64,000 nt of DNA from an uncultured Mycoplasma sp. (GCA_902493595.1 CABUPU010000004.1:9958-73957); one strand, 5' to 3'; shown: positions 2,099 through 14,434, counted from the stretch's first letter. Notes: generated by a model from the letters alone, not told the origin. Made by a program: numbers and translations.

Positions 2099-2479
2099 AA
2101 ACTATTTCACCTCATTAAATACAATGTTTTTCTCGTAAACTTACATCATATTAATTATATCACGTATAATGTTAAACATAAAGATTTTATAACTATGCTA
2201 AAGGTGTATCAAAAATTGCTTAATAGTTCTAAAGCCCTTTAATATAAACAAAAATGAAAGTTTTAGTTCTCTTCAGGGGGCATGCTCTCTTCAGTTAGAA
2301 GAGGCCAAATTGTGTTAAACCCTTTAAATACGGGCCTTTTTATATTGGCATAAACCGTCATTTACCGTGGTTTTTAGTATTTTTTGTACCTAAATTGTAC
2401 CTAAAAAAGACAGTAGTTTTATTTCCACTGCCTTCTCGGATAATTTGATTATACCATTTTTATTGATTAATATCAATCG

Positions 2480-2836
2480 TTAAAAAGATCTGCTTCTATT
2501 AAAGATATATCCTACCAATATGCATGAGGCTACATATAAAACTATAAACATAATTATAAATACTGTTATGTTAGATATTAGATATCCTAATATTGTAATT
2601 AGTGCTGTAACATAACAATAACTTATTAAATAGCCAAAGCTTCCAAATGCAGGTTCATCTACTCCTTTGGTGTATCCACATCCAGTTAGTATATATGCAC
2701 AGGAATGCAAGATAGTACCACCAATAAATATGTTAAATAAGTCAGCATATACTTCACTACCTATTATATTTATATAAGGATTTGGTAGAACAAACTGTCT
2801 TATTAATGCACTAATCAAATGAATAAACTTATACAT
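2480..2836 (-). CDS. small polytopic membrane protein (3-4 TM), unknown function; translationally coupled to the upstream 886-aa gene
   Basis: 118 aa, strongly hydrophobic. There is a 2-nt gap to the stop of 2839..5499. A terminator hairpin plus U-run follows at ~2408-2440 on the minus strand. Confidence 0.5.
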   Translation of the reverse strand: MYKFIHLISALIRQFVLPNPYINIIGSEVYADLFNIFIGGTILHSCAYILTGCGYTKGVDEPAFGSFGYLISYCYVTALITILGYLISNITVFIIMFIVLYVASCILVGYIFNRSRSF

Positions 2837-2838
2837 TA

Positions 2839-5499
2839 TTATTCATCTCCTTCTTTTATAACAAACTTGTAGCATTTTGAATTTGGGATTTTTCTTATTG
2901 AAGGAGATATAAATAATTTAAAAACACAATTTCCTTTTAGATATTCTATTTGATCTTCAACACTTCCTTTTTCCTCTAACCATTTAGTGTTCTTTTGTAT
3001 TTCATTTCTTGCACTTGTATTTGTTGAACAGTCTATAAGGTCATAATATACTCCATTTAAATAAGTACCTGACTCTTTTATATCTGGTTCATACATATCA
3101 ACCCTTGGTAAATCTTTTTTCTTAATTAAATAGATATCTCTTGCTTTAGGTATTTTTATTAAATCAATCTTTCTATTATTTATATCGATAGTTTTATCGT
3201 CAAAATTATTTAAGTTTAAAATTCGCCAATTGGATGGGCTTGTAATAATTACATATTTTTCCTTTTCGTTCAAGCCATCTATATATTTTACAAAGTCTTC
3301 CTTAATAACCTCTGCTATACTATCTAATTTTTTTAAATAATCTTTTGAAATTCCAGTAAGTATAGCACGTCCATAATCCTTGGAAATATTATCTAATCCA
3401 TAAACCTCATCAAAAAATAATTCTCTTCCCATTATTTGATTAATTCCAAATAATCTTTTATTTCTTTTATTAATAATTGAATACTTATTATTATCTTTTA
3501 AATATGATGTCAATTCATTTCCATTTTCTATCTCCTTAAAAATAATTTTTTTGAAACTCTCAGTTTTTTCTGAACTTATTTTGTTATTCTTAATATATTC
3601 TGCTTCAGCTTTTTTACATTCTTCCACTATTTTTTCTAAAACACTTATTAAAGATGAATTGTTGAAATTAACATCTAATACTGCCTCTAGCTTACTTTTC
3701 TCATCTGACTTCACTATATCTAATAATCTTTCATAAAAATATTTATTATCCTTTGAAATCAATTCAGAATTTATATCATCTGAATTTGAATATCCTATAC
3801 CAAACACATAAATGAATTCTTTCAAAATAAATATGTCGTCAACATGAATTCCGGACCATGAATTCCTATATTCTTTATTCTCAAATCTAAAATCAAAATG
3901 ATAATATACATCATGGACATTAGAAATAAAATTGTAATATTTTTTAAAATATTCTATAGCTTCATTTTGACTATAAAAATCTACAAAATTACTCTTAACA
4001 TAATTTATTAGCTTCTTTAATTCATCTTTATCTTCTTCATTAAATACATCCTTATTTGATAGAATAATTAACCCATATATAAACCCAAACGAAAATTGAA
4101 TCTTAATAATATCGTATGAATCAGGTTCACCATCAATAAATCCATTATAATCAAAAATAACATTATTAAATAAATCATTAATAGACTTGAATTCTTTTTT
4201 TATTATTAAATCAAACAAGAAATTCATTAAATTTGATAGTAAAACATCATAATATATAGAATCACTATTCTCTTTTATAGAATAGTAATCATACCTAAAT
4301 AATGAATTAGTAAAATCATATGATGTCTTTCTAACATCATCAGTAATTTCTAACTGTTCAGTATAACAATAATAAATATAGTTACTTAAAAACCTGTATC
4401 TTTCATAATCCTCATTAGAATAAGCTAAACTAGCTAACGTGCTTAAAAAATTTGCTAACTCTTTATTTTTATGTATATCTTTATAATATTTAATATATAT
4501 TTTTCTTATATATTCATATGAAATATCTAATAAAGATCTCATATTATTTTTATATAAAAAATTATAAAAATTAAATAATCTACTATCAGAATCAAAATTA
4601 TCATCTATATTAGTTTCTGCTAAAGAAAATAAATCATTAATTATCAAGTTAATTTCATTATCAAGATATGGAATACTATCATTTAATAAACATGAATTTC
4701 TTATACTGTCTTCATAATTTATGATTTCGTTTTTGCAATAAGCAACTGTCACACCTCTATTTATTTTTTCTCCACCTTTTAGTTTAAGAATTATTAAAGG
4801 ATCTATATATACTATAAGTTCTTTTCTTCTTCTGTTTTCTTCTTCTATCTTATCTATTATCGCTTGTAATGATCTACAACTATATGATTTAAAGATTCCA
4901 CTTTTATTTGCTTTTATTGGAATATAATCATCAATATTTTCTACATCAAAAGAAAAATATTTTTTATTGTCTTTCACAAATTTATCTATAGATTCATTTT
5001 TCAATTTCTTTTTTGAATTTTTAATGTTTCTATTATGAATTTCTATAAGTCTTTTTTCAATATATTTATCATATTCAGCAGAAAAATAGTCACTATCAGT
5101 ATTAAGTTTGATAGCTATTCCAAAAAGTTTAATTGTCAACCAAATAGAACGACAAATAAAAATATTTAATAACAATTCTACTACAAAAAATAAAATTTTG
5201 AATAAATCTGCACATTCTTTATTATATGGTATTATCTCTTTTATGATGCATAGTGATAATATAAGGATTGAAAAAGTCATGATACCTTTCATTCTTGTTT
5301 TTTCTAAAACAAATCTTTTGTGTGTTTCAACCTTCTTATCATTCATCGTCTCTGCAATAAATATTATAATTGCTACTAATACTCCGACTATCCCAACAAA
5401 CGCATCTATTCTCACACTTCCATTTAAAGGTTCAAAAATATTTACGTTCATCCAAATAATAAAATTATAAACATTTTTCATAAATTCTTCTATATTCAT
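2839..5499 (-). CDS. large membrane-anchored protein of unknown function (N-terminal ~4 TM helices, ~750-aa soluble region with no recognisable catalytic motif)
   Basis: 886-aa ORF with its own -10 TATAAT and a strong RBS GGAGGTAAAAG-ATG. No Walker A and no classical nuclease motif. A possible Rx4H (RLIEIH) sits after the TM block. Confidence 0.5.
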   Translation of the reverse strand: MNIEEFMKNVYNFIIWMNVNIFEPLNGSVRIDAFVGIVGVLVAIIIFIAETMNDKKVETHKRFVLEKTRMKGIMTFSILILSLCIIKEIIPYNKECADLFKILFFVVELLLNIFICRSIWLTIKLFGIAIKLNTDSDYFSAEYDKYIEKRLIEIHNRNIKNSKKKLKNESIDKFVKDNKKYFSFDVENIDDYIPIKANKSGIFKSYSCRSLQAIIDKIEEENRRRKELIVYIDPLIILKLKGGEKINRGVTVAYCKNEIINYEDSIRNSCLLNDSIPYLDNEINLIINDLFSLAETNIDDNFDSDSRLFNFYNFLYKNNMRSLLDISYEYIRKIYIKYYKDIHKNKELANFLSTLASLAYSNEDYERYRFLSNYIYYCYTEQLEITDDVRKTSYDFTNSLFRYDYYSIKENSDSIYYDVLLSNLMNFLFDLIIKKEFKSINDLFNNVIFDYNGFIDGEPDSYDIIKIQFSFGFIYGLIILSNKDVFNEEDKDELKKLINYVKSNFVDFYSQNEAIEYFKKYYNFISNVHDVYYHFDFRFENKEYRNSWSGIHVDDIFILKEFIYVFGIGYSNSDDINSELISKDNKYFYERLLDIVKSDEKSKLEAVLDVNFNNSSLISVLEKIVEECKKAEAEYIKNNKISSEKTESFKKIIFKEIENGNELTSYLKDNNKYSIINKRNKRLFGINQIMGRELFFDEVYGLDNISKDYGRAILTGISKDYLKKLDSIAEVIKEDFVKYIDGLNEKEKYVIITSPSNWRILNLNNFDDKTIDINNRKIDLIKIPKARDIYLIKKKDLPRVDMYEPDIKESGTYLNGVYYDLIDCSTNTSARNEIQKNTKWLEEKGSVEDQIEYLKGNCVFKLFISPSIRKIPNSKCYKFVIKEGDE

Positions 5500-5636
5500 C
5501 TTTTACCTCCAATCAAAAAAAGAGCATATTCCATCTTAAAAATGAAACACACTCTATTATTTAATATATATTATAGCATTTTTTTATAATGTTTTAAATA
5601 ATTTTATATATTATTATGTAGTATATAGTTTTTTTA

Positions 5637-13850: not shown

Positions 13851-13927
13851 TTCTAAATTACCTAATAGGTAATTTTATTATATGCTATTTTTTTCAAAAA
13901 TACAACCCTTTTTACAAAAAAAGTCAT

Positions 13928-14131
13928 CTATTTTAATTCAGACAACTCTTCATAATTTTCTTCATTACCCATCCTTTTTAAATAATCTTTACCACCATCA
14001 ACAGCAACAGCACCGCAAGAGCACTTTTTATAATCATTTGTACTTTTAGACTCTATGATATCTCCGCATTTTTTACATTTGATTTTATTACTAATTATTT
14101 CTTCTTTCTTTTCCATAATCCAACTCCTCAT
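13928..14131 (-). CDS. small zinc-ribbon protein (CxxC...CxC), unknown function
   Basis: 67 aa with 'CKKCGD' and 'CSCGA'. It has a -10 TATAAT and RBS GAGGAG. Confidence 0.4.
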   Translation of the reverse strand: MRSWIMEKKEEIISNKIKCKKCGDIIESKSTNDYKKCSCGAVAVDGGKDYLKRMGNEENYEELSELK

Positions 14132-14199
14132 AAGTATTATACCGTGATCTTATACTAATCATATCCTACCGTTTGCGGTATAATATTTTTGTAATCATA

Positions 14200-14345
14200 C
14201 GGATATTATCAATTTTGTCCGTATTAATGGTAAAAAGTCCATTGAGAATTTTTGCCACTTTTGCCACTTTTTCTCAATGAGATTTAAAATAAATAAAAAA
14301 TCCATTGAAGATTTTTGCCACTTTCGGCATTTTTTCTCAATGAAC
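14200..14345. repeat. two tandem ~62-bp units, each a 9-bp inverted repeat CATTGAGAA-N23-TTCTCAATG around a TTTTTGCCACTTT core; operator-like
   Basis: Units at ~14205-14262 and ~14268-14329 are near-identical. They sit between the 27-bp DR and the promoter of the zinc-ribbon gene. Confidence 0.5.
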
Positions 14346-14434
14346 CATTCTTAATTCAAATTTTTTTGTACCTAAATTGTACCTAAAATTATTTTATCAA
14401 CATTAGTGCCTCACAAACCCATATAAAATGGGCA

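Follow-up and report, generated by a model that had tools for sequence, protein, structure and literature searches.

The locus examined here lies in a 64,000-nucleotide stretch (the window) from an uncultured Mycoplasma sp., in which defence genes stand between two perfect direct repeats of 27 bp with no integrase gene beside them, and the question it raises is what the repeats are and where the island ends. The reading favoured here, with a probability of roughly 0.8, is that the 12.2 kb from 14473 to 2268 (minus strand) are a decayed island that has lost its integrase and belongs to a family of site-specific integrative islands found in low-GC gut Bacilli. The two 27-mers are most likely paired integrase arm sites just inside the island ends, and the integrase gene itself has been lost.

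The 27-mer TTTTTTGTACCTAAATTGTACCTAAAA has exactly two copies in the 64 kb, both on one strand (2380-2406 and 14362-14388), as the first-pass annotation had reported, and the chance expectation for 27-mer matches in 64 kb is zero even with three mismatches allowed. The internal tandem described there was also found, the 11-mer TTGTACCTAAA having exactly four copies in the window, all inside the two 27-mers.

The island junctions were mapped by comparing the window with 43 contigs of the same species, and they lie at an exact 13-bp core, CCCCCTGAAGAGA (minus strand), present at 14461-14473 and 2268-2280 with no other exact copy in the window, 72 bp (left) and 99 bp (right) outside the 27-mers. 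Flank homology to the window ends at 14473 in L017 and L031, homology of the elements L097, L159 and L122 (other species) to the window starts at 14473, and 11 strains with unrelated cargo are homologous to the window from 2275-2282 onward. The 27-mers had been taken as the island bounds, but because the flank homology of other strains stops at these positions (~2281 and 14473), the 27-mers and the 72-99 bp beyond them are part of the variable DNA, and the 27-mers are neither the bounds nor a target duplication. The features of the two ends are as follows.

14466..14579, minus strand: truncated small ORF downstream of NUDIX, 37 aa, signal-peptide-like, Cys-rich
14461..14473, minus strand: attL core, left junction, exact 13-mer
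14443..14464, minus strand: terminator hairpin GAGAGCATTTAACCGTGCTCTC followed by a T run, element-borne (terminator scan)
14389..14442, minus strand: left-arm spacer (..GCCCATTTTATATGGGTTTGTGAGGCAC..AAAATAA), the interval from core to arm repeat, conserved across the left ends of other species
14362..14388, minus strand: 27-mer, left-arm copy, tandem 11-bp units (TTTAGGTACAA x2, minus strand), 72 bp from the core
14231..14343, minus strand: 50-nt hairpin with U run in two copies (CATTGAGAAAAA..GTGGCAAAAA..TCTCAATGG; repeat search and folds)
14132..14230, minus strand: hairpin (ATACGGA..TCCGTAT), conserved, with a promoter-like region, both upstream of the island's first gene
2407..2437, minus strand: terminator hairpin of the 118-aa gene
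2380..2406, minus strand: 27-mer, right-arm copy, 99 bp from the core
2281..2379, minus strand: conserved right-arm sequence with tandem ACGGTAAATG / ACGGTTTATG and palindrome CTCTTCTAACTGAAGAG (2287-2303)
2268..2280, minus strand: attR core, right junction, exact 13-mer
2170..2267, minus strand: decayed left arm of a neighbouring element remnant, outside the island, collinear with the left-end architecture

An empty site carrying a single 27-mer had been anticipated; neither this nor any other empty-site allele was found among 187 loci, and a circular (excised) junction for the window species was likewise not found among them. An unoccupied canonical attB, the sRNA gene with its native terminator, was seen in another species (L184, L186). 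Recombination of the window island would be predicted to give attB as ..GGTTGTTCTTCCCCCTGAAGAGAACTAAAAC.. and attP as ..GAGAGCATGCCCCCTGAAGAGAGCATTTAACC... The last codons and stop of the small ORF downstream of NUDIX fall in the attL core, and a full-length version (~110 aa) is present in L017 and L031. The left junction in the window species lies inside this ORF instead of the canonical sRNA gene, so at least one more rearrangement must have led to what is seen today.

A hairpin had been placed just before each repeat copy, and one stands there in both arms: the terminator at 14464-14443, and the hairpin at 2437-2407 (-15.4 kcal/mol, z -4.3), the U run of which merges into the right 27-mer. 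The left hairpin GAGAGCATTTAACCGTGCTCTC is kept in ~50 left ends of other species among the matches listed, and in canonical hosts it takes the place of the terminator of the target sRNA gene. The spacer at 14389..14442 has the same layout in prophages found through the integrase protein, and the paired 50-nt hairpins at 14231..14343, which may act as terminators or insulators, are conserved in the left ends of other species. The right arm (2281..2379) is ~90% identical to L102 and L106 and is conserved in ~26 right ends among the matches listed; it contains a second CTGAAGAGAG after an inverted copy (2287-2303), which does not fit a simple core model. The right-end repeat is retained in L015 (same island type), L102 and L106, and together with the right end it also closes the unrelated type a cargo of L018. 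Both cores and both arms of the window island are intact, and the arms are 88-96% identical to those of integrase-bearing relatives.

The wider occurrence of the end sequences was assessed in GTDB species-representative genomes, each a different species, with the sample ascertained by exact motif match, so that invariance of the motif across these loci is by construction. The 20-mer TAGGTACMATTTAGGTACMA was present in at least 118 DNA stretches of these genomes, and nearly all matches listed were a left end (core upstream) or a right end (core downstream). The 27-mer is not private to the island but part of end sequences conserved in many species; a common genome-wide regulator site, the alternative envisaged at the outset, did not emerge, as recurrence was seen only at element ends. 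The window island can be assigned to this widespread family. Among the matches listed, 22 left ends extend over 4.5 kb or more, and 15 of these carry the L097-type integrase (80% identity or higher) 2.1-3.9 kb from the repeat, without exception in reverse orientation. This tyrosine integrase (int97) is a reverse-strand protein of 369 aa with Arm-DNA-bind_4 and Phage_integrase domains. Prophage-type modules accompany it in the intact L097, namely a cI-like S24 repressor, a Cro-like HTH protein and a phage replisome organiser, and in L002 the integrase is accompanied by S24-like, HTH and Phg_2220_C proteins. The canonical core, CCCCCTGAAG(A/G)AG, is normally found in a small sRNA-like gene, with the C-rich single-stranded tail on one side and the terminator on the other. 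The canonical target is the 3' end of this gene, which is unannotated.

The repeats were compared with the integrases in three clades at island ends and in four pairings from IMG/VR prophages, the latter found through the integrase protein and not through a DNA motif. The integrase int97 is paired with TAGGTACAA, the L002-type integrase (50% identical to int97) with GGGAACAA at both ends, a pairing that recurs independently in another species (L109), and a third clade with TAGGTACCA. The IMG/VR relatives have the core, a terminator, ATAAAGGGTTTG, tandem 11-mers (TTAGATACT, TTAGATACG, TTAGATAAG) and then the integrase stop codon. L166 and L170 share an arm motif and use different attB sites, and their integrases are 57% alike in the N-terminal domains versus 44% in the rest of the protein. 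In these pairings, the repeat sequence tracks the integrase clade. Because different tandem 11-mers (GGGAACAA, TAGGTACCA, TTAGATAC) occupy the same position in related clades, the 27-mer is best read as a pair of arm-type integrase sites. Binding of the repeats by the integrase is suggested by position, periodicity and co-variation. The 27/27 identity between the two arms exceeds what binding sites need, and gene conversion could be its cause.

The gene content of the island agreed with the first description (Pfam, PADLOC), and its features, from left end to right end, are these.

13928..14131, minus strand: DUF7695 zinc-ribbon gene, 67 aa (Pfam PF24749, E = 1.8e-28)
13485..13850, minus strand: HigB/RelE-like toxin gene, 121 aa (Pfam HigB-like toxin, below the curated cut-off; PHROG 3066, TA toxin)
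12431..13516, minus strand: HTH (HigA-like)-ImmA/IrrE metallopeptidase fusion, 361 aa (Pfam; NCBIfam HigA)
11813..12413, minus strand: PemK/MazF-domain pseudogene (intact: 243 aa), one frameshift, last ~30-40 codons gone
11841..11843, no strand: deletion/recombination junction where two pseudogenes abut
11505..11829, plus strand: frameshifted copy of a 107-aa gene (three-frame translation against L002 and L146)
8574..11357, minus strand: hsdR, type I restriction subunit, 927 aa (Pfam, PADLOC)
7085..8560, minus strand: hsdM, type I methyltransferase, 491 aa (Pfam, PADLOC)
5637..7082, minus strand: hsdS, specificity subunit, 481 aa, two target-recognition domains (Pfam, PADLOC)
2839..5499, minus strand: 886-aa membrane-anchored cargo protein, orphan family
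2480..2836, minus strand: 118-aa membrane protein

In roughly half of the family the genes begin, after the left end, with the DUF7695 gene, and by tblastn it was matched in 26 motif-bearing loci of other species, mostly left ends, among the matches listed. The HigB-like gene has 97-98% identity in L097, L122 and L159, and the HTH-ImmA/IrrE gene matches PADLOC PD-Lambda-2_B (E = 1.3e-33) over nearly its full length. With the intact 243-aa protein of L097 as tblastn query, itself a Pfam PemK/MazF match, the pseudogene gave two HSPs in different frames (residues 1-94 and 103-212). A different hsdS allele is present in L015 and L106. An HK97 (capsid/encapsulin) fold domain is predicted in the 886-aa protein; the 118-aa gene always comes next after the 886-aa gene, and in many species a relative of it is the final gene ahead of the right end. 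The complete type I RM system, the PD-Lambda-2_B-like HTH-peptidase and the HigB-like toxin make this a defence island.

The window copy has lost its integrase. No homologue was found in the island or the 64-kb window by tblastn with the integrases of this family as queries, in agreement with the first-pass annotation, and the place of the loss can be seen at 11841-11843. L097, L159 and L122 are 89-95% identical to the window from 14473 to 11841, where their homology stops, and the match to the 107-aa module present in L084, L133 and L026 ends at 11842-11847. Beyond the equivalent of 11841 the intact relative L097 has the integrase, as does L159 by tblastn, and L122 has a fragment only; in relatives the 107-aa gene comes after the integrase. 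An hsdR of 95% identity lies directly beside a frameshifted integrase in L047, and L084 has its left end fused straight to the module that starts at 11843 in the window. Most likely, a deletion with its joint at 11841-11843 took away the 3' end of the PemK-like gene, the integrase and whatever followed, so that everything between the 243-aa and the 107-aa genes is missing. As the integrase is absent here and present in close relatives, the window copy is a derivative and not a functional member of the family.

Strain comparison and gene content bore out an inserted, variable island with defence genes, which sits in a hypervariable hotspot. At least three cargo types follow the identical NUDIX gene, and the last 3 kb of cargo comprise ~23 different sets among 31 strain segments (30 contigs and the window), each set ending in its own tandem 11-mer ~100-130 bp before the same core. 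The alternative cargos also contain defence genes (RM, Abi, TA-like and candidate systems). The flanks are not the plain housekeeping DNA first supposed: the 151-aa gene itself varies in presence from strain to strain, homologues of NUDIX accompany islands of this kind in other species, and the DNA just outside the right core is the decayed left arm of another element. At the position where this remnant has GATACACCTTTAGCATAG, L180 has an intact tandem TAGGTACAC x2, and the remnant indicates tandem accretion next to the island. GC content, proposed as a check, was no different inside the island than outside it.

In the proposed mechanism, intact members would insert by a heterobivalent tyrosine integrase at the core CCCCCTGAAG(A/G)AG, the incoming element supplying both a core of its own and a terminator to replace that of the target. 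Some 70-130 bp inside each junction there would be a pair of 11-bp direct repeats, one helical turn apart, probably bound by the N-terminal arm-binding domain of the integrase so as to bridge arm and core, as in lambda and Tn916. The 27-mer would be such a repeat pair, with one copy each in the arms of attL and attR. The window island has retained both att sites, the left cassette (DUF7695, HigB-like, HTH-ImmA), the type I RM system and the 886/118-aa pair.

That the two 27-mers are the true boundaries, as a duplicated target or att core with an empty site carrying a single 27-mer, is suggested by a repeat that is exact, direct, unique in the window and brackets all cargo genes, but this is very improbable given that the flank is shared only to 2275-2282 (the 11 unrelated-cargo strains) and to 14473 (two strains), that a different exact repeat, the 13-mer, stands at those junctions, that over 100 bp of conserved end sequence accompany the 27-mer in dozens of species, and that no allele joined at the 27-mer was seen among the 187 loci. 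It is unlikely, too, that the tandem 11-mers bind another element factor, such as an excisionase/recombination directionality factor, a cI-like repressor or the DUF7695 protein. Xis sites, too, typically consist of tandem direct repeats (lambda X1/X2), the small conserved DUF7695 gene follows the left end in about half of the members, and a repressor, a Cro-like protein and an 87-aa protein are among the products of intact relatives. However, the repeats are present in both arms and abut the integrase gene in true prophages, the motif changes with the integrase clade, the integrase is, among screened genes, the most regular companion of TAGGTACAA ends across cargo and regulators, and L047 lacks HigB and HTH-ImmA yet has int97.

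The conserved ends might instead be homology arms between which cargo is swapped by homologous or illegitimate recombination after transformation or transduction, with the 27-mers as passengers. Type a matches the window in the right end alone and departs from it directly after NUDIX, module boundaries fall repeatedly at 11841-11847, the core is absent in several strains, and one third of the left ends among the matches listed are without an integrase. This account is nevertheless quite unlikely, as it leaves unexplained both the periodic tandem repeat at constant distance from the shared core in every family and the tracking of repeat and integrase clade, and in more than 10 unrelated cargos the junctions fall at the core to within a few bases. 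Homology-arm shuffling is also compatible with the favoured reading, arm sites of a lost integrase, as a later cargo layer.

Defence-gene hotspots are known from prophages, satellites and chromosomes of E. coli and Pseudomonas. As there, one conserved position holds many alternative defence-gene sets; unlike there, the host clade consists of uncultured low-GC gut Bacilli and the site is defined by a shared integrase core with element-specific arm repeats. A phage satellite/PICI was rejected because Pfam and tblastn gave no integrase, master repressor, replication module or capsid-hijack/packaging genes in the window island. A transposon or IS was also rejected: the conserved sequences at the two ends differ and are not inverted copies, the repeat search reported no terminal inverted repeats there, and none of 10 island ORFs scanned (nine largest included) matched a transposase family in Pfam.

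The organisation of heterobivalent integrases has been described, with the mv4 Int of the Tn916 family comprising 369 aa (bioRxiv 10.1101/2023.11.06.565760). Like lambda Int, Tn916 and mv4-type att sites, the window has a short core at both junctions and direct repeats in both arms tens of bp from the core, and the relatives encode an integrase of ~369 aa, the length of mv4 Int, with an N-terminal arm-DNA-binding and a catalytic domain. The target, as in such systems, is the 3' end of a small RNA gene regenerated by the element, although it is an unannotated sRNA-like gene and not a tRNA or tmRNA. The window copy differs from heterobivalent integrase elements in having no integrase, and in this family 2-4 kb of cargo separate the attL arm from the integrase, which do not abut.

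The CIME, and its accretion, have been defined for streptococcal ICE/IME (PMC5704250). Since the window island keeps attL, attR, the type I RM system and other cargo, with the integration genes lost, it can be regarded as a CIME-like remnant, and it stands in tandem with other remnants having the same att core, as in CIME accretion. Unlike the ICE/IME parents of CIMEs, the parent elements here carry prophage-type modules, and no relaxase or conjugation genes were seen in the examined parts of relatives (intact relative examined: L097). Mobilisation in trans or a fossil state, the two options given at the outset, were the right pair. The island cannot move by itself, and excision would be possible only through a cognate integrase acting in trans, which is the sense in which it is CIME-like; such mobilisation may be possible. 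Most likely, the island is an ordinary representative, now decayed, of a family that is widespread among uncultured gut Bacilli.

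The source organism belongs to the Bacillota, has a low GC content (~25 %) and is known only through metagenomes of the human gut; a class B RNase P RNA was detected, pointing to this placement, and a GTDB representative stretch titled "uncultured Bacilli bacterium" (L080) has the same flank (97 % identity over 269 bp). The 27-mer TTTTTTGTACCTAAATTGTACCTAAAA has two copies in the window, 2380-2406 and 14362-14388, which share one strand, and there is no further match even when 3 mismatches are allowed (expected number zero). The 11-bp unit TTGTACCTAAA within it has exactly four copies in the window, all inside the two 27-mers. 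The first-pass annotation had reported this repeat pair, the genes between the copies and the lack of an integrase gene, and all three observations were confirmed, the gene content by Pfam, PADLOC and NCBIfam profiles. The large genes between the 27-mers are all on the minus strand and one short pseudogene is on the plus strand. The island genes are as follows.

Minus strand: DUF7695 zinc ribbon
Minus strand: HigB-like toxin
Minus strand: HTH domain fused to an ImmA/IrrE peptidase (PADLOC PD-Lambda-2_B match, 1e-33)
Minus strand: decayed PemK/MazF-like gene
Minus strand: hsdR-hsdM-hsdS, a complete type I restriction-modification (RM) system
Minus strand: 886-aa membrane protein and 118-aa membrane protein

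Queries with integrases of this family found no homologue, either within the island or elsewhere in the window, and a search of 11200-12600 at E-values up to 10 gave no integrase remnants. The GC content is the same inside and outside, so composition is uninformative for the island.

The ends of the island were located by comparison with other strains. Contigs encoding an identical NUDIX protein continue into at least three unrelated downstream gene sets, one of which is the window's island, and one of the alternatives carries a tyrosine integrase. For the right side, 33 further contigs were anchored on a UvrD-like gene. Homology to the right flank of the window begins at 2275-2282 in 11 strains with unrelated cargo, and homology to the left flank ends at 14473 in 2 strains. 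An exact 13-bp core, CCCCCTGAAGAGA, is found on the minus strand at 14461-14473 and 2268-2280, with no other exact copy in the 64 kb (core counts rest on CCCCCTGAAGAGA; the pattern CCCCTGAAGRAG was a mistyped core string and was disregarded). A near-match at 58036-58048 was dismissed as lying inside a coding region. The 27-mers lie 72 and 99 bp inward of the two cores. Because the homology breaks and the exact core copies are outside them, the island is placed at 14473 to 2268, a length of 12.2 kb, with the 27-mers as internal element DNA. The earlier reading of an inserted defence island without an integrase therefore stands, but the role it gave to the repeat and its position of the ends do not. 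Across 31 strain segments (30 contigs and the window), ~23 distinct sets are seen in the last 3 kb of cargo, and the insertion site is a hypervariable hotspot. A search for an empty site, suggested by the first-pass annotation, used flank-to-flank queries joined at the core or at the 27-mer and gave no spanning match in 187 loci; every contig of the species anchored on NUDIX or UvrD has an insertion of some kind. Rfam gave no match at the island ends.

Alternative islands at the hotspot have a tandem of 11-bp (rarely 12-bp) units ~100-130 bp before the right core, with a unit that differs between islands (GGGAACAA, TAGGTACCA, CTACCCATCA, TGCACA and others). In one integrase-bearing alternative, designated type b (L002 continued in L025), a GGGAACAA pair is present at both ends in the same geometry as the window's 27-mers. 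A species-level scan (one genome per species) with the 20-mer TAGGTACMATTTAGGTACMA identified at least 118 stretches, mostly from uncultured Bacilli, "Tenericutes", Erysipelotrichaceae and CAG-type genomes, and nearly all of the matches listed fall into two conserved contexts. Left ends have the order core, terminator hairpin, ATTTTATAAGGGTTTG, tandem repeat, one or two hairpins and promoter region, and right ends have the order cargo terminator, tandem repeat, ~120 bp of conserved sequence and core. By pattern classification, the matches listed include 55 left and 26 right ends with TAGGTACAA, and 7 left and 12 right ends with TAGGTACCA. Integrases of the int97 type (at least 80 % identity to the 369-aa tyrosine integrase of the relative L097) are encoded at 15 of the 22 TAGGTACAA left ends for which 4.5 kb or more of sequence was available among the matches listed, always on the reverse strand and 2.1-3.9 kb from the repeat. 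The repeat is paired with the integrase: int97 with TAGGTACAA, the L002-type integrase (50 % identical) with GGGAACAA, likewise in an unrelated species (L109), and a third clade (53-59 % identical) with TAGGTACCA.

As the GTDB loci had been selected by the motif itself, a second sample was obtained from IMG/VR using the integrase protein. The relatives recovered (36-52 % identical) show the order core, terminator, ATAAAGGGTTTG, tandem 11-mers and integrase stop codon, the 11-mers being TTAGATACT (three copies), TTAGATACG (two copies) and TTAGATAAG (two to three copies). Two of these relatives have a common arm motif and different attachment sites, and their integrases are 57 % alike in the N-terminal domains versus 44 % for the rest. 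The 20-mer itself was found only twice in IMG/VR viral contigs, in unrelated contexts, and the TAGGTACAA elements are therefore regarded as absent from IMG/VR.

The 27-mer is best read as a pair of putative arm-type integrase sites. Binding is predicted from the occurrence of the repeats in each arm with a fixed spacing to the core, a repeat period of one helical turn, the arm-binding domain of the integrase, and a repeat sequence that varies with integrase clade. Tn916 Int binds direct repeats located in each arm of the transposon. The general organisation of heterobivalent integrase systems has been described (bioRxiv 10.1101/2023.11.06.565760). Another direct repeat in tandem, ACGGTAAATG / ACGGTTTATG, follows a few bp past the 27-mer in the conserved right arm (window 2340-2362, minus strand). 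Its conservation extends across species, and an accessory factor such as an excisionase could bind there. No mention of the motif or core strings was found in the literature searched.

Three relatives from other species (L097, L159 and L122) share 89-95 % identity with the window between 14473 and 11841. Beyond this point, L097 and L159 encode the 369-aa integrase (Pfam Arm-DNA-bind_4 and Phage_integrase) on the reverse strand, and L122 retains only an integrase fragment. In L097 the genes after the integrase encode an S24 cI-like repressor, a Cro-like HTH protein and a phage replisome organiser. In the window, homology to the intact relatives ends at 11841, the 243-aa PemK-like gene has a frameshift and is missing its last ~30-40 codons, and the DNA from 11843 leftwards is the 3' end of a 107-aa gene, which lies beyond the integrase in the relatives and is frameshifted and on the opposite strand in the window. 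The truncation of the PemK-like gene, the stop in homology and the adjoining 107-aa gene end together show that the integrase and the intervening DNA were lost by deletion or illegitimate recombination. Related arrangements occur in L047, where a frameshifted integrase is directly beside an hsdR 95 % identical to that of the window, and in L084, where the left-end repeat is joined almost directly to the 11843 module. Among the matches listed, about one third of left ends are without an integrase, and many of the integrase genes are fragmentary. The window island retains both att sites intact, at 88-96 % identity to their counterparts in relatives with an integrase, and excision would leave the repaired site GGTTGTTCTTCCCCCTGAAGAGAACTAAAACTTTCA and the circle junction CTTCTAACTGAAGAGAGCATGCCCCCTGAAGAGAGCATTTAACCGTGCTCTC.

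In 24 left ends of other species, a short gene-like unit, often downstream of recG, lies ahead of the core and consists of a TTGACA-17-TATAAT promoter, two hairpins, a single-stranded CAACCAAAACCCCCUGAAG tail and a terminator. The stem sequences differ between species and the shape is kept. RNAalifold on a MAFFT alignment of this small RNA (sRNA)-like gene gave no pairs, as the stems are too diverged for alignment by sequence; single-sequence folds, which are weaker evidence, were used in its place and gave the architecture in 20 of 20 cases. Rfam gave no match at the canonical attachment site in 18 loci, and its permissive mode gave chance-level matches only. In L184 and L186 the unit has its own terminator and no element arm, and represents an unoccupied site. 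The unit is absent from the window, where the left junction falls within a small Cys-rich ORF whose full-length form (~110 aa) is found in other strains (L031:~330-700 and L017).

L184:8795-8925 (also L048, L071, L122, L159 and ~20 other loci): sRNA-like gene, just upstream of the left junction
Window 14466-14579, minus strand: small signal-peptide-bearing Cys-rich ORF, 37 aa, truncated by the left junction

The right flank of the window resembles the sequence after the sRNA-like gene in L180. These three features of the window together imply that the local arrangement needed at least one further rearrangement.

Outside the right core, the DNA at 2267-2170 is collinear with a left end in which the tandem repeat has decayed; L180 has an intact tandem of two TAGGTACAC units at the matching position. 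The 151-aa gene beyond this arm (window 1643-2098) is found only in some strains. The right flank is not the plain housekeeping DNA described in the first-pass annotation, and the decayed arm and strain-variable gene indicate that the island sits in a tandem array of remnants and not beside core chromosome. The left-arm-like DNA is also consistent with accretion. On the left, NUDIX/MutT-like genes (window copy 14601-14996) recur beside or inside islands of other species (62-67 % identical in L101, L141, L118 and L130; a NUDIX-family gene also at L184:13979-14425), and another island variant of the same species holds a copy with 70 % nucleotide identity (L029:3650-3998). This flank may itself be island-associated. 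A DpnII-type type II RM system (two methyltransferases and an endonuclease; window 16321-18778) lies ~2 kb from the island. It is strain-variable (L006, L009 and L010 versus L001-L005, with neighbours otherwise identical) and adds a second defence locus of variable occurrence.

The 886-aa protein is a member of an orphan family (56 clusters, none with a domain match). A 118/119-aa membrane protein follows the 886-aa homologue in every context fetched (two homologues), the pair has RM, AbiE or Fic genes as neighbours, and in many species a relative of the 118-aa protein is encoded by the final gene ahead of the right end. Foldseek searches of PDB and BFVD with the 886-aa protein ranked capsid proteins first with weak E-values, and the predicted capsid-fold (HK97) domain probably spans residues ~670-886, judging from the secondary-structure pattern. 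In the type b island, the genes encoded between the left arm and the integrase (L002:10748-12963) include one for a DUF8370 protein. This protein matches the PADLOC candidate system PDC-M36A (E = 4e-45), which supports the proposal that defence cargo occupies the slot separating the attL arm from the integrase gene.

The window island is a decayed site-specific integrative island in a hotspot, which is a well-known kind of element. It fits the published definition of a cis-mobilizable element (CIME) and the tandem accretion described for these (PMC5704250), but its parents look prophage-derived and not conjugative. A wider reading, to which we give a probability of roughly 0.3 with all its parts taken jointly, is that the 27-mer marks an undescribed, prophage-derived family of integrative islands that has recently spread over dozens of uncultured gut Bacilli species. 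This tentative reading includes an integrase more than 90 % identical between species, a target at the 3' end of a C-rich sRNA gene that lacks annotation, and a defence-cargo slot separating the attL arm from the integrase gene. Integrase-less copies with intact att sites would be hitch-hikers moved in trans by resident relatives, and the predicted HK97-fold membrane protein and its 118-aa partner could be a new anti-phage module, for example a capsid-assembly decoy. The junctions, core and arm motifs allow automatic delimiting of the island family and its defence cargo in gut Bacilli metagenome-assembled genomes, and several natural integrase/arm-site pairs on one common core are useful for the study or engineering of arm specificity. 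The unannotated sRNA-like attachment-site gene and the orphan two-gene module with a predicted capsid fold each deserve separate study.
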